From the IMG/VR virus record IMGVR_UViG_3300038315_001378, positions 1 through 43,110 of that record: 43,110 bases of DNA. One strand, 5' to 3'. Shown piece after piece: positions 4,577 through 38,069 of this stretch (its first letter is position 1; the number at the start of each line of letters is the position of its first letter). The notes below the pieces were generated by a model that was not told the origin of the DNA, did no database searches, and saw nothing but the letters and a program-made list of their open reading frames with translations. The stretch comes from a virus (Duplodnaviria > Caudoviricetes). The translations under genes were made by a program, and so were the position numbers.

Positions 4577-5608
4577 ATGGCAATTACTTTAGGAGCTCGT
4601 ATAACAACTACTACGCAGGATTTTTTCTTGCCAAAAGTGGTAGATACTATTTTAAACGGAAATGTATTTTTGACCAGAATGCTTAGAGCGGCGAAAGAAT
4701 GGCGCGGCAATCAGATTAAGAAACCTGTTAAATATCAAAAAGGTGTAGCAGGCGGTTCTTTTTCAGGGCTTGATACCTTTTCTACAGAAGTCTCTAACAC
4801 TCGCGTTAATTTGGTTTATGATCCAGCTTTCTACGAAATCGGTGTTAATATTCCTTTGACAGAAATTTGGACAAATAGTGCTAACTCACAAGAACAAGTG
4901 CTTGATTTAATTGATCTGGAAATAGAGTCTCGCGCTCAAGACGGAGCAGATGAGCTTGGCACTATGGCTTATGGTGATGGTACTGGCAACTCGTCTAAAG
5001 ACCTTTTAGGATTAGAAGCAATTGTTGATGACTCAACAAATGTAACTACTATTGGCGGACTTTCCCGATCAACTTATACCACTTTACAGTCAACAGTTAC
5101 AGCATCAGGCGGAACTTTGACTTTAGCTAAAATGGATACTTTATTTAGCGCGATTACATCAGGTTCACAAAAGCCGTCTATAGGCTATACAACTGAAACT
5201 GTATGGGATTTAGTAGGACAATTATTTACTTCGCAGGAGAGAATTAATAAAGATGTGCAAATGATTAAAGGCGGAATCACTGTAGGCGGAGGAGCAGTCG
5301 CGGTTGTTTATAAAGGCGTGCCGATTTTATCAGACGAGAAAGCAACCTCTGGAGTCTTGTATCTTCTTAATGAAGATTATATGGACTTTTTCGCAATGAG
5401 TACGAAAGAAGGAACAGAGCCAGTGAATTTCAGCTCGCAGATTGAAGGAAATGATTATAAAGCTCCAATGGGATTAGGGTTTAGCTGGAGTGGTTGGATC
5501 AAACCAAGCAATGCGGCAGCTTTAATCGGACACTTGTATCTAGGCGGTGAACTTATCTCTTGGAACTTTAAACGACACGGTAAACTAACAGGAGTAACAG
5601 GAATTTAA
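4577..5608 (+). CDS. Major capsid protein
   Basis: 343 aa after scaffold; YGDGTGN..KDLLGLEAIVD, TIGGLSRS, YKGVPILSDE and C-terminal RHGKLTGV pattern; followed by a hairpin. Confidence 0.85.
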   Translation: MAITLGARITTTTQDFFLPKVVDTILNGNVFLTRMLRAAKEWRGNQIKKPVKYQKGVAGGSFSGLDTFSTEVSNTRVNLVYDPAFYEIGVNIPLTEIWTNSANSQEQVLDLIDLEIESRAQDGADELGTMAYGDGTGNSSKDLLGLEAIVDDSTNVTTIGGLSRSTYTTLQSTVTASGGTLTLAKMDTLFSAITSGSQKPSIGYTTETVWDLVGQLFTSQERINKDVQMIKGGITVGGGAVAVVYKGVPILSDEKATSGVLYLLNEDYMDFFAMSTKEGTEPVNFSSQIEGNDYKAPMGLGFSWSGWIKPSNAAALIGHLYLGGELISWNFKRHGKLTGVTGI

Positions 5609-25073: not shown

Positions 25074-25352
25074 TCAATCAAATATCCCCTCAACCTCCTC
25101 CATTTCCAATTCATACCATTTGTCTTTGCCAAAACAAACATCTTCTGCAGCACAGTCTCGCATACGGACATTATAGATTTTAGGCTCTGGTTTTTCTACA
25201 TCTTCTACTTCTTCAACAGCTTTAACGCGAGGCACACGAGGCGCATGAGGTTGAGAAGTCAATAATCCTCCCAGCCATATAGACAGCCACACAACAGTTA
25301 AGCAAATTAAAAATATAAAAATTAGAAGACAGTTTTTGAGTATTTTATTCAT
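25074..25352 (-). CDS. Membrane-anchored small protein
   Basis: N-terminal hydrophobic helix; ATGA overlap with the upstream gene. Confidence 0.65.
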   Translation of the reverse strand: MNKILKNCLLIFIFLICLTVVWLSIWLGGLLTSQPHAPRVPRVKAVEEVEDVEKPEPKIYNVRMRDCAAEDVCFGKDKWYELEMEEVEGIFD

Positions 25353-25948
25353 ATAAGCACAATATCAGACACCTTACCAGCAAAATCGCGCCAAACGCCA
25401 TCAACGCCTTGGACGCGTTTAAGATCGTAAGTCATCTGACTACCGTTAAAATAAGGTTTTAGTTTATTCGTACGTATAGTTTTTTTCACGTCGTTAAAAG
25501 TTTTAAAACCCTCCCTCTGGTCGCTCTTATCACTCTTACCACTCTCTATATAGTAAGGTTTCCGCTTGGTTTCCGCACCGTTTCCGCACCGTTTCCGTAT
25601 TTGTTTCCGCATTTTAACTCTTTTATCATAATCTATTATGGTTATAATAAGGCCATCTCGGGTTTTTTGTTTCCGTATTAGTTTCCACTCTTTTGTAAGG
25701 AAATTGAGTATTCTTAGCACTTTGTCCTCCGCACCTTTTTTGGGCAATCCAAACCATTCAGCAAATTTTTTACATTTAAGGAAAACTTGACCGCGTTTAA
25801 GAAAAACTGAATTCTCATTGTCGTAATCATCTTCAGTTCTTGCTAATATTATCAATTTTTCTAAAATCGTTGTAGCAAATTTATGACCACCGCAGTGATC
25901 TTTGATCTTAACAGGTATTGGCTGTCTCCAGCCCCATTGATCCCCCAT
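25349..25948 (-). CDS. Replication initiator-like (replisome organizer) protein
   Basis: LIILA...LKRGQ...LIITIIDYD pattern plus internal iteron-like repeats. Confidence 0.6.
   Translation of the reverse strand: MGDQWGWRQPIPVKIKDHCGGHKFATTILEKLIILARTEDDYDNENSVFLKRGQVFLKCKKFAEWFGLPKKGAEDKVLRILNFLTKEWKLIRKQKTRDGLIITIIDYDKRVKMRKQIRKRCGNGAETKRKPYYIESGKSDKSDQREGFKTFNDVKKTIRTNKLKPYFNGSQMTYDLKRVQGVDGVWRDFAGKVSDIVLI
25558..25610. repeat. Iteron-like repeats GTTTCCG(C/T) x5, 11-12 bp period
   Basis: Starts at 25558, 25569, 25580, 25591, 25603; further partial copies near 25669 and 25681. Confidence 0.75.
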
Positions 25949-29171: not shown

Positions 29172-29323
29172 TTAAAGGAATGCTAGAGTTTTTAAATGGG
29201 AAAAAAACAATAATTACAGGTTTGGTAATGGTTGCTTTGGGCTTGCTCCAAACAGACCAGACATTAATATTAGAAGGATTAGGTTTAATCTTTCTGCGTT
29301 TAGGTGTTAAAAATATTAAGTAA
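29168..29323 (+). CDS. Holin-like small membrane protein
   Basis: MIKGMLEFLNGKKTIITGLVMVALGLL...ILEGLGLIFLRLGVKNIK*, two hydrophobic segments; read by hand. Confidence 0.6.
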   Translation: MIKGMLEFLNGKKTIITGLVMVALGLLQTDQTLILEGLGLIFLRLGVKNIK

Positions 29324-29452
29324 CTGGCCTATGATATTAATTTTAGTTCTTTCAGTAATTTCGATTATATTAAGGATTAAATGGGCGATATATAATGGTT
29401 AGGCAAAAGTTAGGCAATATAATGAATTGTTAAGTTTTTTGGTTTTATTGGC

Positions 29453-29481
29453 TTGACAAAAAAATTAAACTGTGCTAGCCT
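29453..29481 (+). promoter_or_regulatory. Sigma70-like promoter of the tracrRNA-like RNA
   Basis: TTGACA - 17 bp - TAGCCT with extended TG. Confidence 0.65.
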
Positions 29482-29487
29482 AATAAT

Positions 29488-29662
29488 ATTCACCATTGCT
29501 AAAATGGGGTGGGCTTACCGAGCTGCCTTGCTCTTTCGAGAGCAAATTCCGATCCGTCGGAACTTGTCGTAGAAGTACGCGAGGAGCGTTGAAGTAAGAA
29601 AATTCTCTAACTAATAACATTGTAGATAGCCCCCTAATAGTAATATTAGGGGGTATTATTTT
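29488..29662 (+). ncRNA. Putative tracrRNA / scaffold RNA
   Basis: Several short hairpins, then 29601-29627 complementary to the CRISPR repeat, then a 10-bp GTAA-loop hairpin with T-rich tail. Confidence 0.8.
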
Positions 29663-29663
29663 C

Positions 29664-30791
29664 ATGGCAAAAAAACCAAAAACTGCTTTTATCAGAAAAG
29701 TCTATAAATACCGAATATATCCAAACAGTACTCAAAAAAAGATGATGGCACAGCATTTTGGCTGTGTTCGCTGGGTTTACAACTGGGCTAGGAAAAATAA
29801 AATAAGAGCTTATAAAGCACAAAATAAAGACCCTATAATGCTTAGAGCTAATCCAGAATTAGATCAAAAAGGCAGGGCGCATAAATACGAATTATCACGA
29901 CAACTCACGCAGTTAAAAAAAAGACATGCCTTACAGTGGCTTAACGAAATTAATTCTCAATCACTTGTGGCGGCTATACATCATTTAGACTCTGGAATGC
30001 AACATTTTTTTAGGAGAGTGAAACAAGGCGGTGTCCCGGGCTTTCCAAGAAAGAAATATAAAGATGATAATAAATCAAGTTTTGAGTGTCCCCAACATAC
30101 GACAGTTAATCAAAAAAAAGGTTTTATCAGCATACCAAAAATACCTTTTATTAAAACTAAAATTCATAGAAATTTTGAAGGCAAGACTAAAATGATAACA
30201 ATTAGTAAGACAGCAAGCGGTAAATATTACGCCAGCGTGCTAGTAGAAGAAAAGGGGAGCTTGCCTAAAAAACCTAAACTTGATAAAAAGAAATTAAAAT
30301 TAGTAAAAGTAAATCAAATGTTAAAACAACAATTCTTAGAAAATAAATTAAAGCGTTTAAAAGTTTTGCAAAGAAGATTAAGCCGCAAACAACACGGCGG
30401 GAAAAATTACGAAAAGGCAAGAATTAAATTAGCTAAACTGCATGAGCTAATTTCAAACCAGCGCGGTGATTTTCTGCATAATCAATCTAAAACCTTGATT
30501 AAAAAACACAAACATATTAAGATTAAAGAAGAAAAAATAGCGGAAAAAATTAAAAAAGAAAAACATAAGCAAAACAAAAGAAGGATATTAGACAGAGGAG
30601 CAGGGGAGTTTAAAAGGCAGTTGCAATATAAAGGTGAATGGTACGGGGCTAATGTTATTGTAGAGAAAAAGAAAAAACCAGACTGTCGTTGTGGTGGCTG
30701 TATTGATAACGCTCTTTTAGCGGCGGAAAGATGTATAATAGCAAAATCCGATCAAGGTGTTTTGGATAAAAAACCAAAACCTAAGTCTTAA
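29664..30791 (+). CDS. tnpB: CRISPR-associated TnpB homolog (IS200/IS605 OrfB family), predicted nuclease-dead
   Basis: YKYRIYP, FGCVRWVYN, WLNEINSQSL, GFPR, SGKYYAS, LQRRLSRK, NQRGDFLH, EFKRQLQYKGEWYG present; RuvC motifs GIDLG, IEDL and DRDxNAA absent or degenerate. Confidence 0.88.
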   Translation: MAKKPKTAFIRKVYKYRIYPNSTQKKMMAQHFGCVRWVYNWARKNKIRAYKAQNKDPIMLRANPELDQKGRAHKYELSRQLTQLKKRHALQWLNEINSQSLVAAIHHLDSGMQHFFRRVKQGGVPGFPRKKYKDDNKSSFECPQHTTVNQKKGFISIPKIPFIKTKIHRNFEGKTKMITISKTASGKYYASVLVEEKGSLPKKPKLDKKKLKLVKVNQMLKQQFLENKLKRLKVLQRRLSRKQHGGKNYEKARIKLAKLHELISNQRGDFLHNQSKTLIKKHKHIKIKEEKIAEKIKKEKHKQNKRRILDRGAGEFKRQLQYKGEWYGANVIVEKKKKPDCRCGGCIDNALLAAERCIIAKSDQGVLDKKPKPKS

Positions 30792-30861
30792 TATTTATGA
30801 TTTGGCTTAAACAAGCGGAAAAGGACAATAAACCACTGCGACATGATGTTGTTTTCTGCGC

Positions 30862-30890
30862 TTGCTTTAGCTAAATTAGCTATCTACAAT
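30862..30890 (+). promoter_or_regulatory. Putative array promoter 1
   Basis: TTGCTT - 17 bp - TACAAT, the -10 lying inside repeat 1. Confidence 0.5.
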
Positions 30891-31323
30891 GTTATTGGTT
30901 AAGGGGATTATTAGACGCAGAAGAAACAGGAGATACCTTTAGAAGATCTACAATGTTATTGGTTAAGGGGATTATTAGACCTTTGTATTCTTTTTGATAG
31001 TATTGTTGATCTACAATGTTATTGGTTAAGAGAGTTGTTAGACAGAATTATCAGTAGTGCATTTTAAAACATCTACAATGCCATTGGTTAAGGGAATTGT
31101 TAGACTTCGCCTATCATTGTATCCCAGTAATGATCTACAATGTTATTGGTTGAGGGAGTTGTTAGACAGGGATAGGCTTATTTAAGCCAAAAAACTAACT
31201 TTGCTTAAAATAAGGCAATCGATACTTTTTCTATATTATTGGTTAGGAGGGTTGTTAGACAAAAAAGAAATGGCAAAAATTTATTAAGATCTACAATGTT
31301 ATTGGTTGAGGGAGTTGTTAGAC
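30882..31323 (+). CRISPR. CRISPR array, 7 repeats of 35 bp (consensus ATCTACAATGTTATTGGTTRAGGGRRTTRTTAGAC)
   Basis: Repeats start at 30882, 30946, 31009, 31071, 31133, 31226 (5'-degenerate), 31289; spacers 29, 28, 27, 27, 58, 28 nt, all unique. Confidence 0.95.
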
Positions 31324-31471
31324 TTACGCATATTAATGACGGGGTAATATCATGACATAATATGTATGCTGTCATGACATGCATGTCATGTATATTCTTT
31401 CAACTTCTTTTTAGTGGTCTAATGCGAAGTTGAGTATTTGGCTTAAATTAAACAAATAATGCTCCCCTATT

Positions 31472-31651
31472 ATGTCTTCTTACTTTTGCTTAAAATGCGG
31501 CACAGAAAATATCGATACGCCATATGGCGTGCCGCAAGGTTGTAATTGTCGTGAGTCTGCGATAAGAAAAAATCCAAAACCAGAAGATAAAACAAAAAAA
31601 ACTCAAGACATAAAAAATTTATTTGATTTTTTAAATCTAAATAACAAATAA
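31472..31651 (+). CDS. Small Zn-finger-like protein (59 aa)
   Basis: MSSYFCLKCGTENIDTPYGVPQGCNCRES..., read by hand. Confidence 0.5.
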   Translation: MSSYFCLKCGTENIDTPYGVPQGCNCRESAIRKNPKPEDKTKKTQDIKNLFDFLNLNNK

Positions 31652-36026: not shown

Positions 36027-36116
36027 TGCCTTGTTACTGCTCTCCCATACAGGAGGGCAGAAAAGAAGGTGTTAAAAAAAACCCACAAGGACTAATTGAG
36101 GGTTGAAAAAGTCCAG

Positions 36117-36656
36117 ATGTTACAAAATAATGGATATGTAAAATTATGGCGTAAAATCTTAAAAAGCGATATGTATCTTAGCTTAAATAGCAAACAGAGA
36201 GATGTTATGATACAGTGCCTACTTTTAGCAAATTACAAAAAAAAAGATTGGGAGTGGAAGGGTAAGATTTTTCGAGCAAAAAGAGGACAATTTATTACCT
36301 CTTTGGCCTCTTTGAAGAAGAATTGCGCTAGAGACGTTTCTACAAAAAATATCCGCACTGGACTCGAAAAATTAAAAAAGTGGCAATTTCTGGCAAGCAA
36401 ATCGACAAAGACAGGAAGGCTAATAACCGTGTTAAAATGGGCAAAATATCAACGCAAGCCAAGAAAAGCGGCAAAGCAATCGGCAAACAGGCGGCAAACA
36501 GGCGGCAAACAGGCGGCAACTAACAAGAAGTATAAAGAATATAAAGAAGAGTACGGATTTTTTTTAAAAAAAAATAAAAACGACGACGACTACGACGAAA
36601 AACGGAAAGCTATCGACAAAGTTCACGAACAAATAAAGAAGAACAAAAAACTATGA
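36117..36656 (+). CDS. Phage replisome organizer / replication initiator
   Basis: NNGYVKLWRKI, CLLLAN, KRGQFITSLASL, IRTGLEKL, LITVLKWAKYQ motifs. Confidence 0.8.
   Translation: MLQNNGYVKLWRKILKSDMYLSLNSKQRDVMIQCLLLANYKKKDWEWKGKIFRAKRGQFITSLASLKKNCARDVSTKNIRTGLEKLKKWQFLASKSTKTGRLITVLKWAKYQRKPRKAAKQSANRRQTGGKQAATNKKYKEYKEEYGFFLKKNKNDDDYDEKRKAIDKVHEQIKKNKKL
36468..36519. repeat. Iteron-like 11-bp tandem repeats CGGCAAACAGG, probable origin
   Basis: Copies at 36481, 36492, 36503, partial at 36514 and 36469; followed by an A-rich region. Confidence 0.75.
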
Positions 36657-36878
36657 AAAGCCAAAAATTAAAAACTAAATATTCCAAAACTCCGCGATCC
36701 GACAAAGAGAGAAAAGAGAGAGAAGAATTTTTTATGCGGAAGGTTGAAAAATTTAGAATAGGTAATTTAAAAAAATAAACTCTCTCTTGTTCGCTGTGAG
36801 CATGCGCAAGCTAGATGCCAACGGCTCTAGTGTAATATATTGGAGGGGCGCGCAGGTGAATGGCGACAAGAGGGATTT

Positions 36879-38069
36879 ATGAGATATATGTTTATTTATA
36901 AAAAAGAAAACCAATTACCAATTAAAAGCTGGATATTAGAGGAAGATTATAATGCTGATGAGAAAATGGTTGAACAAGTAGAGAATTTAGCTAAATTACC
37001 ATTTGCTTTTCAGCACGTTGCTTTACTTCCAGATGGACACGTCGGCTACGGCATGCCTATTGGCGGAATTATGGCAACTAAAAATGTAATTGTTCCGAAT
37101 GCGGTTGGTGTAGATATTGGATGTGGAGTTTGTGCTGTCAAAACTTCTTTAACAGAAATTGATACAGAAATACTTAAAAAAATAATGGGAGAGATTAGGA
37201 AATTGATACCGCTTGGGTTTAAGAGGCATAAAGAAGGACAGGACATGGACTGGGAATTTGCAGGAGAGGGTGAAATACCTAAAATCTGCTTGCAAGAGTG
37301 GAGTAATGCAAGCAAATCTTTAGGCACTCTCGGCGGAGGCAATCATTTTATAGAAATTCAAAAAGGCGACGACGGACATATTTGGATTATGCTACATAGC
37401 GGAAGCAGGAATTTAGGATTTACTGTTGCCAATTTCTATAACAGATTAGCGGTAAAATTAAACCAAAAATGGCATAGTCAAGTGCCTAAAGAATGGGAAT
37501 TAGCCTTTTTGCTAGTTGATAGTGAAGAAGGACAAAAATATATCGAAGAAATGCGATATTGTGTTGAATATGCTTTGGCTAATAGGGAGTTAATGATGGA
37601 TAGAATTTTAGATATAATACGGGAAAAGATAGGTGGATTTGGTTATACTTGGGACAACATGATAAATATAGCCCATAACTACGCGGCTTTAGAAAACCAT
37701 TTTGGTCAAAATGTCTGGGTGCATAGAAAAGGAGCAACACGAGCCAGAGAAGGGCAGTTGGGAATAATCCCAGGAAGTCAAGGAACAAATAGCTACATTG
37801 TAAGAGGCAAGGGCAACCCAGATAGTTTTGAGTCTTGCTCACATGGAGCAGGCAGAAAAATGGGACGAAAAGAAGCAAAATGTAATTTGAATTTAGAAGA
37901 AGAAATTAAAAAGTTAAAGGATAAAAATGTGATACACGGAATTAGAGGAATTAGAGACTTAGACGAGGCCCCTGGAGCGTATAAGGATATTAACACTGTA
38001 ATCCAAAACCAAAAAGATTTAATTGATGTAGCGGTTATATTATATCCTTTAGCGGTAATTAAAGGATAA
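36879..38069 (+). CDS. rtcB: RtcB-family RNA ligase
   Basis: PDGHVGYG, AVGVDIGCG, GTLGGGNHF, HSGSR, HN, HRKGAT, SCSHGAGR, DEAPGAYK motifs intact. Confidence 0.96.
   Translation: MRYMFIYKKENQLPIKSWILEEDYNADEKMVEQVENLAKLPFAFQHVALLPDGHVGYGMPIGGIMATKNVIVPNAVGVDIGCGVCAVKTSLTEIDTEILKKIMGEIRKLIPLGFKRHKEGQDMDWEFAGEGEIPKICLQEWSNASKSLGTLGGGNHFIEIQKGDDGHIWIMLHSGSRNLGFTVANFYNRLAVKLNQKWHSQVPKEWELAFLLVDSEEGQKYIEEMRYCVEYALANRELMMDRILDIIREKIGGFGYTWDNMINIAHNYAALENHFGQNVWVHRKGATRAREGQLGIIPGSQGTNSYIVRGKGNPDSFESCSHGAGRKMGRKEAKCNLNLEEEIKKLKDKNVIHGIRGIRDLDEAPGAYKDINTVIQNQKDLIDVAVILYPLAVIKG

Follow-up and report, generated by a model that had tools for sequence, protein, structure and literature searches.

A predicted phage tracrRNA with the features of a split omega-RNA beside a TnpB-like gene and a CRISPR array

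TnpB gave rise to the type V effectors of CRISPR systems many times, and the splitting of the omega-RNA into a tracrRNA (trans-activating CRISPR RNA) and a crRNA (the CRISPR RNA) is considered the key step on this path. A locus in the genome of a marine phage raises the question of whether the product of such a split can be recognized in a sequence of today. The window that we analyzed, that is, the whole stretch of 43,110 nucleotides (nt), is a complete virus genome (CheckV completeness 100%). The locus occupies positions 29450-31400 as an orphan within it and lies entirely on the + strand, where a stretch of 175 nt is followed by a 375-codon open reading frame (ORF) for a TnpB-like protein, P0001, and by an array of seven repeats. 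Our reading, to which we give a probability of roughly 0.8, is that the 175-nt stretch (29488-29662, + strand) encodes a tracrRNA that shows homology to the 5' core of omega-RNAs over its first ~110 nt and whose 27 nt before the terminator are complementary to nt 1-28 of the repeat; tracrRNA and repeat together would rebuild an omega-RNA scaffold that has been split in the loop of its last stem. The parts of the locus on which this reading turns are the following:

29488-29662 (+): predicted tracrRNA, composed of an omega-RNA-like core, an anti-repeat and a terminator, with inferred ends
29601-29627 (+): anti-repeat, equivalent to the 5' arm of omega-RNA stem 4
29664-30791 (+): effector gene for P0001, 375 amino acids, TnpB-like with a degenerate RuvC domain
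30882-31323 (+): CRISPR array with seven repeats of 35 nt

The first line of evidence is the pairing between this stretch and the array. An original prediction, made from the letters of the window alone, had claimed that 29601-29627 pairs with repeat nt 1-28 with a single bulge, and every sequence element that it named was found in its place. The anti-repeat pairs with repeat nt 1-20 and 22-28 while A21 is bulged, and if both RNAs are read from the + strand, all 27 of 27 pairs form in five of the seven repeats (repeats 1, 2, 3, 5, and 7; 23-25 Watson-Crick and 2-4 G-U pairs each), while 25 of 27 form in repeat 4 with its CC variant and 23 of 27 in the degenerate repeat 6. An independent repeat search picked out the same region, with 29608-29630 being 96% complementary to 30879-30901 over 23 nt. 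Co-folding bears this out as well: When the tracr stretch was folded together with repeat 2 and spacer 2, the 27 intermolecular pairs obtained were precisely those of the anti-repeat, and the energy gain was -21.5 kcal/mol compared with a mean of -5.2 kcal/mol (best -11.8 kcal/mol) for 100 shuffled repeats. The co-fold retains stems 2 and 3 of the scaffold (see below) and leaves repeat nt 29-35 unpaired.

The variation among the repeats also bears on the strand from which these RNAs would be made. All four A/G-variable positions of the repeat face U, and the argument that the resulting G-U wobbles fix the + orientation holds: In RNAs from the minus strand, they would become A.C, which leaves 2-4 mismatches in six repeats and 7 mismatches in repeat 6. 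Repeat 4 had rightly been singled out as an exception, since it is strand-neutral with 2 mismatches whichever strand is read. For repeats 1, 2, 3, 5, and 7, the duplex energies are -32.5 to -34.0 kcal/mol on the + strand versus -21.6 to -26.2 kcal/mol on the minus strand, an advantage of ~8-11 kcal/mol. The 175-nt + strand is also more stable than its shuffles (z = -3.98, with none of 200 shuffles equal), but the minus strand of 29488-29662 likewise beats its own (z = -3.33), so that fold stability alone cannot fix the strand. The placement of the tracrRNA on the crRNA strand (+) is instead supported by the G-U bias together with the covariance model match and the terminators described below.

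The second line of evidence comes from the omega-RNAs of transposons. Since no diverged copy of the locus was found, we compared it with the omega-RNAs of the nearest TnpBs, for which 80 TnpB loci with 31-43% protein identity to P0001 were fetched. Omega-RNA ends were located by grouping the 3' regions of the tnpB genes and taking as the end the point where similarity between copies is lost. For one group of omega-RNAs, of Moraxella type, 45 pairs are predicted, of which 25 show compensatory changes, and 12 of these RNAs were used for a first covariance model (R1). A second, wider type has a compact 5' core that begins with a 5-bp hairpin with a 5-nt loop and a linker such as AAAGAG, continues with a stem 2 (CYYGU / GCRRG) around a variable stem 3 and the motif GAAGCARGAAGC, and ends with stem 4 and a tail such as GUAGUUCAC directly before the guide. 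A model of seven such cores (R2) recovered 26 loci at E <= 0.01, with all matches directly past the tnpB stop codon and on the gene strand; the alignment of 26 sequences reaches 97.4% pairing, and 16 of its 18 pairs show compensatory changes, counts that are favored by its having been fitted to the model.

The covariance model built from 26 omega-RNA cores of TnpB loci (R3), which includes no sequence from the window, was then run across the whole 43-kb window on both strands with filters off. It picks 29493-29602 (+) as by far the best match, covering the full model (1-65) with 28.7 bits and an E-value of 2.6e-5 that is, by the tool's own statement, a rough figure; the runner-up in the window scores 14.3 bits, and the maximum in 91.7 kb of unrelated control contigs is 9.8 bits. 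The alignment shares sequence as well as structure, with UGAAGUAAGAA in the window against the model consensus UGAAGCAGGAA. Judged against this background, the tracr stretch is a recognizable homolog of the 5' two-thirds of these omega-RNAs, in line with the resemblance to a split omega-RNA that had been suggested from the letters. The homology covers the 5' core only, and R3 has no match downstream of the effector stop codon, which places the omega-RNA core upstream of the gene only. Rather than one continuous omega-RNA, the locus thus holds core and anti-repeat at 29493-29627 and the rest 1.25 kb away in the repeats, which supply the 3' arm of stem 4 and the pseudoknot strand, with the spacers as guides. 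We consider it likely that the tracrRNA is a recently split omega-RNA. No TnpB remnants of the kind expected from a decayed tandem copy were found upstream of the tracr stretch by tblastn with 6 TnpBs, and Rfam yielded 0 matches in the window at gathering thresholds and only weak ones in E-value mode over 29300-31500 (the best being ncr952, whose 20 bits fall short of the gathering score of 100, E 0.14).

Aligned to the model, the core resolves into the following elements:

29493-29507 (+): hairpin 1, CCAUU-GCUAA-AAUGG, by covariance model alignment the counterpart of the hairpin that comes first in the related omega-RNAs
29499-29502 (+): CUAA within the hairpin 1 loop, predicted to form the pseudoknot with repeat nt 30-33 (UUAG)
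29514-29598 (+): stem 2, CUUAC (29514-29518) with GUAAG (29594-29598), by model alignment and with a pair probability of ~0.85
29522-29530 with 29580-29587 (+, inside stem 2): stem 3, GCU.CCUUG with CGAGG.AGC, by model alignment and with a probability of ~0.95

In the fold ensemble, which was computed on 29488-29600 alone, the minimum free energy (MFE) structure is a long rod of stem 2 and stem 3 with -36.7 kcal/mol, compared with -27.1 kcal/mol for a fold with four hairpins as the original prediction had drawn it. Stem 3 carries a 49-nt apical extension tipped by a UCCG hairpin (29547-29562) with a probability of 0.78-1.0. The helix CTTAC/GTAAG that had been described as enclosing the four hairpins corresponds to omega-RNA stem 2 and is supported by the model. 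The four inner hairpins are all present as complementary segments, and TTCCGA-TCCG-TCGGAA, the one at the tip, persists in the ensemble, but the TTGCTCT hairpin drops to ~0.05 and ACTT-GTCGTAG-AAGT and ACGC-GAGGA-GCGT to ~0.

The anti-repeat begins two to three nt after stem 2, exactly where the 5' arm of stem 4 begins in the relatives, and we therefore regard the repeat:anti-repeat duplex as stem 4 opened at its loop. Stem 4 of the ISDra2 omega-RNA has been described as a natural fusion of crRNA-like and tracrRNA-like parts (PMC10097598). The idea of a direct single-guide RNA design gains from this view, as a loop that joins the two strands of the repeat:anti-repeat duplex would restore stem 4 as it naturally occurs in the relatives. 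With the corrected structure, hairpin 1 and the UUAG tail of the repeat would have to stay in such a design, while the apical part of stem 3, including the GUCGUAG segment, is the likely site for trimming.

A further feature of omega-RNAs is a pseudoknot next to the guide. For ISDra2, nt -5 to -3 before the guide are described as pairing with a loop situated close to the scaffold's 5' end (PMC10097598). In the relatives, nt 2-5 of the hairpin 1 loop complement nt -6 to -3 ahead of the guide, after which comes AC or AA, and loop and tail change together: GGAAC goes with GUUC, GGAUG with CAUC, GGAAU with AUUC, GCAAC with GUUG, and GGACA or GGGCA with (U/C)GUC, with GGACA and its tail UGUC pairing through GAC and GUC at -5 to -3. 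All four positions are paired in 28 of 37 loci, and one further locus has no recognizable tail. Among loci L048-L127, L121, L125, and L109 are exceptions to this pattern (L051, L081, L101, and L117 being examples of the family). This covariation supports a predicted pseudoknot across this subfamily of TnpBs. In the window, the loop GCUAA (29498-29502) offers CUAA for four of four Watson-Crick pairs with the UUAG that lies at -6 to -3 and precedes AC, a register shared with the relatives, and UUAGAC is the 3' end of all seven repeats. The window loop never reaches more than two of four pairs with 10 foreign tails, and neither does the window tail with 13 foreign loops. Such a match between loop and tail is the pattern that would be expected had the pseudoknot survived the split.

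Several points weigh against this reading. Hairpin 1 has an ensemble probability of only ~0.1 in the register with the 5-nt loop because CCAUU can pair with GGUGG instead, which is energetically favored; CUAA remains in the loop in that register, too. The pseudoknot helix would be only 4 bp long, and the tail comparison is partly circular because the 3' tails of the relatives were chosen from a motif list compiled by eye. Models R1 and R2 (the latter from 7 sequences and with default filters) have no window match at E <= 10, the match to R3 carries a rough E-value, and direct comparison of the tracr stretch with 61 omega-RNA regions gave only matches of 10-14 nt (at most 11 nt exact) with blastn-short and none with nhmmer. 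The collections searched hold no diverged orthologous locus, and the other copies are 100% identical: A scan of viral_contigs with the P0001 protein revealed no orthologous locus, a repeat-pattern scan returned 3 isolated matches in viral_contigs, put down to chance, as well as 43 loci in metagenome_contigs, of which only one (L027) has an array, on a contig that is 100% identical to the window, and the contigs of four marine runs contain no variants of the locus. The tracrRNA itself therefore offers no covariation. The tracr stretch lies upstream of its gene, unlike omega-RNAs and most type V tracrRNAs, and its putative promoter (see below) is weak and not listed by the promoter scan, with promoter-like sites unenriched overall (10 versus 9.8 expected). 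No RNA run is among the listed runs that hold the stretch, so that ends, strand, and processing of the tracrRNA are inferred, and the searches described below found no spacer targets.

P0001, the protein that would be guided by these RNAs, is a TnpB derivative that is probably nuclease-dead. It carries the TnpB N-terminal domain PF12323 (E 1.1e-15) and a partial PF01385 domain, in which residues 222-289 align with positions 43-110 of the 120 in the profile. Its NCBIfam guided_TnpB score of 173 bits clears the cut-off of 100, and its best sequence match is ISDra2 TnpB (E 7e-39). Apart from its own cluster, a search of 5.8 billion protein clusters found nothing above 41% identity, and among the 120 relatives listed nearly all are ordinary TnpBs with three Pfam domains, with P0006 as an exception. 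The AlphaFold model (pLDDT 78.4, predicted template modeling score 0.71) has confident WED, REC, and RNA-binding helices, and Foldseek ranks ISDra2 TnpB first (E 8.6e-21, template modeling [TM] score 0.64-0.78), followed by ISFba1 TnpB, with dCas12f at rank 6 and LaTranC at rank 26; for Cas12f, the TM score is about 0.55-0.58 at 12-15% identity.

The loss of the RuvC-I motif and the zinc-finger/RuvC-III part at the C terminus is what makes P0001 probably nuclease-dead, with motifs judged against 18 relatives (MAFFT) and a profile of 115 homologs. On alignment, P0001 does not have the intact RuvC site that goes with TranC-type cleavage, while it shows the loss of at least two DED residues and the truncated C-terminal zinc-finger/RuvC part that mark TldR-type proteins. 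The RuvC-I loss is not beyond doubt, as one pairwise alignment sets D207 opposite ISDra2 D191, and it is conceivable, if on balance unlikely, that the effector retains nuclease activity through a rearranged site, which would make the locus an ultra-compact TranC-like interference system instead of a DNA binder. Acidic residues that could serve such a site are E289 and E290, just after the position of the catalytic Glu, and D348 within CGGCIDNALLAAERC; rearranged RuvC sites are known in TnpB and Fanzor (PMC10691335; bioRxiv 10.1101/2023.11.30.569447), and an active phage TranC without a C-terminal domain has been reported (bioRxiv 10.64898/2026.03.27.714800). Against an active site stand the profile of 115 homologs, which deletes 11 positions around the RuvC-I Asp, puts K288 at the catalytic Glu with E289 adjacent, and ends before the second CxxC and the DRD motif, and the MAFFT alignment, which concurs. 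The zinc-finger domain PF07282 stays below its cut-off in P0001, and the structural model contains three RuvC strands only, with low confidence at residues 292-310 and 337-375 (pLDDT <50 for the latter). We therefore keep to a probably nuclease-dead effector.

How the predicted tracrRNA would be made depends on three signals around it and the array:

29453-29481 (+): putative tracrRNA promoter read by eye, TTGACA (29453-29458), 17 nt, and TGc-TAGCCT (29473-29481)
29629-29662 (+): terminator-like hairpin (29629-29654) with a U-rich tail, from the terminator scan, with AGGGGG in its 3' arm
31373-31390 (+): terminator-like hairpin after the array, from the terminator scan

The promoter is absent from the sigma-70 consensus scan because its second hexamer matches at only 3 of 6 positions. 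The final hairpin, CCCCCTAATA-GTAA-TATTAGGGGG with the tail ATTATTTTCA, had been proposed to end the RNA and was indeed reported as terminator-like on the + strand. The tracrRNA is encoded beside the effector gene and the array and ends ~2 nt before the effector start codon; AGGGGG, by eye the likely ribosome-binding site of the effector, lies 10 nt before the ATG (29644-29666). Since this ribosome-binding site is within the 3' arm of the terminator, tracr termination and effector translation may be coupled. In addition, a 27-nt inverted repeat (29436-29462 / 29656-29682, 81% complementary) brackets the tracr unit, with its right arm spanning the effector start codon. It could be a processing stalk or a mask of the start codon in longer transcripts, or it may have arisen by chance since both of its arms are A/T runs.

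In the mechanism that we propose, the tracrRNA would be made from its own promoter near 29453-29481, starting near 29488, or be cut from a longer + strand transcript. Most transcripts would stop at the terminator hairpin (29629-29662), with read-through yielding mRNA for the effector, and transcription of the array would run along the + strand to an end near 31390. Repeat nt 1-28 would pair with the anti-repeat into a 27-bp duplex that is equivalent to stem 4 and a likely substrate of host RNase III, and the repeat UUAG (nt 30-33) would join CUAA of the hairpin 1 loop in a guide-proximal pseudoknot as in TnpB and Cas12 RNAs. The spacer of 27-29 nt at the 3' side of the repeat would then guide the complex of protein, tracrRNA, and crRNA to matching DNA beside a transposon-associated motif (TAM). 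As the least certain step, this complex would most likely bind DNA without cutting it, like TldR and dCas12f, which we propose since the RuvC site looks broken.

A different view of biogenesis is that there is no separate small RNA at all and that the effector mRNA begins with 29488-29662 as a structured 5' leader, with the scaffold acting within this leader or being cut from it. We regard this as doubtful, to about the same degree as an active nuclease. It would account for the likely ribosome-binding site inside the hairpin 29629-29654 and the start codon 10 nt further on, no other gene promoter is listed within 29300-29664, the neighboring genes from 26148 on are all on the + strand, the 27-nt inverted repeat around the unit could form a processing stalk, and TnpB has been reported to process its own mRNA into omega-RNA (PMC10278001). 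The hairpin with its U-rich tail, however, suits an intrinsic terminator, and a perfect TTGACA stands 17 nt from TGc-TAGCCT immediately upstream of the stretch. Furthermore, a leader would alter the biogenesis only and leave the function unchanged from that of the tracrRNA which we prefer.

The locus might also be a decaying relic, that is, a broken TnpB gene with fossil pieces of omega-RNA and no present function, which we think is improbable, more so than either of the alternatives above. Apart from the lost RuvC-I motif and C-terminal domain, the state of the array could be taken in this sense. Its repeats start at 30882, 30946, 31009, 31071, 31133, 31226, and 31289, with intervals of 27-29 nt bar one of 58 nt (31168-31225), and are only 74-100% alike, repeat 6 being degenerate, in its 5' half only. 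Among 30 ORFs of the 43-kb genome scanned against PHROGs, no cas1/cas2-like match was found, with no dedicated Cas1/Cas2 profile run. Repeats 1 and 2 as well as 5 and 7 are identical and the array sequence is the same in the contigs of both runs that cover it (X1 and X2), which, together with the lack of nearby adaptation genes, suggests array growth by duplication rather than active spacer uptake. P0001 is an orphan protein, and the searches made found no spacer targets: none within the phage itself (best 6 of 28 mismatched), none that convinces in 50,697 phage records, no exact match of 22-mers of spacers 1 and 4 in viral_contigs (spacers 2, 3, and 6 were not scanned there), and only A-rich or motif matches in 401 sampled Patescibacteria genomes. 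Yet the 375-codon frame is intact and identical in contigs of several marine runs, its WED, REC, and RNA-binding helices fold confidently, the variation among repeats leaves the duplex unbroken in five of seven, and terminators are present. The pseudoknot partners are unlike those of any relative on both sides but match each other. We hence favor a tracrRNA that works with its array over a fossil.

Two other features of the array are recorded here as observations. A -10-like hexamer, TACAAT, is found inside every repeat, and one such site (31270-31297) is listed by the promoter scan. The array is also flanked by a direct repeat, ATTTGGCTTAAA, at 30800-30811 and 31436-31447, with an inverted copy inside it at 31181-31192 (minus strand); at <=1 mismatch, this element has 4 matches in the window versus 1.29 expected, and 5 of 100 shuffles reach 4.

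The remaining two alternatives concern details of the same RNAs. The original prediction had proposed that the GUCGUAG loop (29566-29572) forms the pseudoknot with the repeat end UUAGAC, and GUC:GAC with UAG:UUA would give six pairs and a single bulge, a raw pairing no weaker than that of the 4-bp alternative. The segment is, however, part of the stem 2/stem 3 region and base-paired within the MFE rod, the ACUU/AAGU hairpin needed to expose it as a loop has a probability of ~0 in the ensemble, and this region is not the pseudoknot strand in ISDra2 (PMC10097598) or in the relatives, none of which shows such a pairing. This version of the tracrRNA is very unlikely in our view; the partner named originally is probably wrong and to be replaced by the loop of hairpin 1. 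That the RNAs are made from the minus strand is hardly credible in spite of the stable fold of that strand (z = -3.33), given that the covariance model matches on the + strand only, that the duplex would have its 2-4 A.C mismatches and be ~8-11 kcal/mol weaker in repeats 1, 2, 3, 5, and 7, that both terminator-like sites are on the + strand, and that the guide would fall 5' of the repeat handle, unlike in TnpB and Cas12.

The surroundings of the locus are those of a phage. Genes for a large terminase, a major head protein, tail proteins, a DNA methyltransferase, RusA, DnaB-like and DnaD-like proteins, and RtcB were found, the neighbors of the locus are phage genes by a PHROGs scan, and there is no linkage to fliC, oppF, or csrA as in TldR. 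Two sets of 11-bp tandem repeats with similar units, GTTTCCGC x5 (+, 25558-25614) and GTTTGCCGC x4-5 (minus, 36468-36519), sit within DnaD-like ORFs (25349-25948, minus, and 36096-36656, +) in the same orientation relative to the gene and look like iterons of two replication modules. An RtcB-type RNA ligase is encoded at 36840-38069 (PHROG 1075, E 7.7e-119) and possibly serves the repair of tRNAs cut by host defenses.

Three hints, which are not proof, point to a Patescibacteria (candidate-phyla-radiation) bacterium as host. The major head protein (4577-5608) is closest to that of an uncultured member of the Caudoviricetes (34%) and then to that of a TM7 (Saccharibacteria) phage (31%), and the TnpB locus with the best E-value (2e-68) belongs to a Patescibacteria genome. 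Finally, the 58-nt interval after repeat 5 (31168-31225) contains a 19-nt hairpin motif, GGCTTATTTAAGCC, which ends exactly 28 nt past the repeat and is followed by six A. At <=1 mismatch, this motif occurs at 44 places in 33 of the 401 sampled Patescibacteria genomes, compared with 0 for the reversed control, and in one genome it follows an apparent tRNA 3' end; it may be a hint about the host or a regulatory site.

What makes the locus worth attention is that a split product is still recognized by a model of the living omega-RNAs of sister transposons, while the pseudoknot partners have changed jointly. It thus offers a clean, testable natural example of the omega-RNA splitting step and indicates a very small RNA-guided DNA binder with a 375-amino-acid protein, a scaffold of ~140 nt, and a multiplex array. 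A bolder version, which we put forward tentatively and at clearly less than even odds, is that this is the smallest CRISPR-associated TnpB derivative so far (375 amino acids), caught just after the omega-RNA split and already nuclease-dead, with tracrRNA and multi-spacer array making it a programmable multi-target DNA binder. If this were true, the protein would be a CRISPR-TldR hybrid that silences genes of the likely Patescibacteria host or of rival elements, and a nuclease-dead effector would mean that phages use CRISPR-type multiplex guides for regulation, not cutting.

Among known systems, one survey states that type V effectors arose from TnpB ~50 times, that many V-U groups have arrays without adaptation genes, and that inactivated derivatives are common (PMC10691335). 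The ISDra2 omega-RNA, as described in PMC10097598, shares with the phage RNAs the order of a 5' hairpin with a pseudoknot strand, stem 2 around stem 3, and stem 4, as well as a 3' pseudoknot strand at -6 to -2 adjoining the guide, and its TnpB is the best match of P0001 in both sequence and structure. It is, however, one continuous RNA that overlaps the 3' end of tnpB and takes a single guide from the transposon flank, whereas the phage locus would have an intermolecular stem 4, seven guide units, and a 5' part that lies upstream of the gene. Cas12f (type V-F) resembles the phage locus in its dual RNA with a repeat:anti-repeat duplex, a pseudoknot with the 3' end of the repeat, and a miniature effector, but has expanded REC and WED domains and acts as a dimer, and no Rfam or other model connects its RNAs with the phage tracrRNA.

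Two groups of nuclease-dead proteins invite comparison as well. TldRs are described as nuclease-dead TnpB-like repressors in two preprints (bioRxiv 10.1101/2023.11.30.569447; 10.64898/2026.09.22.753285), and P0001 is like them in that it is homologous to TnpB, its DED triad has deteriorated, and the zinc-finger/RuvC part at its C terminus is truncated; phages carry some of the TldRs as well. According to the same preprints, TldRs use one adjacent single guide RNA and stand beside fliC, oppF, or csrA, whereas the phage locus has a tracrRNA and a seven-repeat array, with no promoter-matching guide target found; in text searches of the preprints, the terms "tracrRNA" and "CRISPR array" are absent from one and occur once each in the other, where one such passage concerns Cas1 and spacer integration rather than TldR. 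Nuclease-dead Cas12f proteins, according to PMC13472631, are type V-like effectors that have lost part of RuvC through truncation at the C terminus, some of which adjoin CRISPR arrays and for which transcription regulation has been proposed. They differ in being derived from Cas12f, not directly from an IS605-type TnpB, in being bacterial (Bacteroidetes), and in that the study detected no tracrRNA-like species for the systems which it characterized. In the literature we found no description of a phage effector that is close to TnpB, degenerate in RuvC, and accompanied by tracrRNA and array, with the published TranC clades known to us by description only.

Transposon-CRISPR intermediates named TranC were reportedly the subject of a 2025 paper by Jin et al. 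in Cell whose title begins "Functional RNA splitting...". TranCs are characterized as pairing a TnpB-like effector with a CRISPR array, their tracrRNA and crRNA having arisen when a transposon RNA was split (PMC13565253; bioRxiv 10.64898/2026.03.27.714800), and the latter preprint presents CauTranC9 of a phage as an active, ultra-compact member. The differences from the phage locus are several on these accounts: P0001 has 375 amino acids versus a mean of 414 in TranC clade 9 and no recognizable RuvC-I and RuvC-III motifs while CauTranC9 is reported as active, the array has seven repeats of 35 nt versus five of 38 bp, and the tracrRNA is upstream of the gene, not between gene and array; the solved LaTranC structure is just rank 26 among the structural matches of P0001. 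The likeness lies in an effector that stands nearer to TnpB than to classic Cas12, in a short array that lacks adaptation genes, in a tracrRNA and crRNA from a split transposon RNA, and in the existence of phage-borne examples. With a TnpB-like effector beside a CRISPR array and a tracrRNA derived from transposon RNA, the locus is an orphan, very small, and probably nuclease-dead TranC-like system with an upstream tracrRNA.

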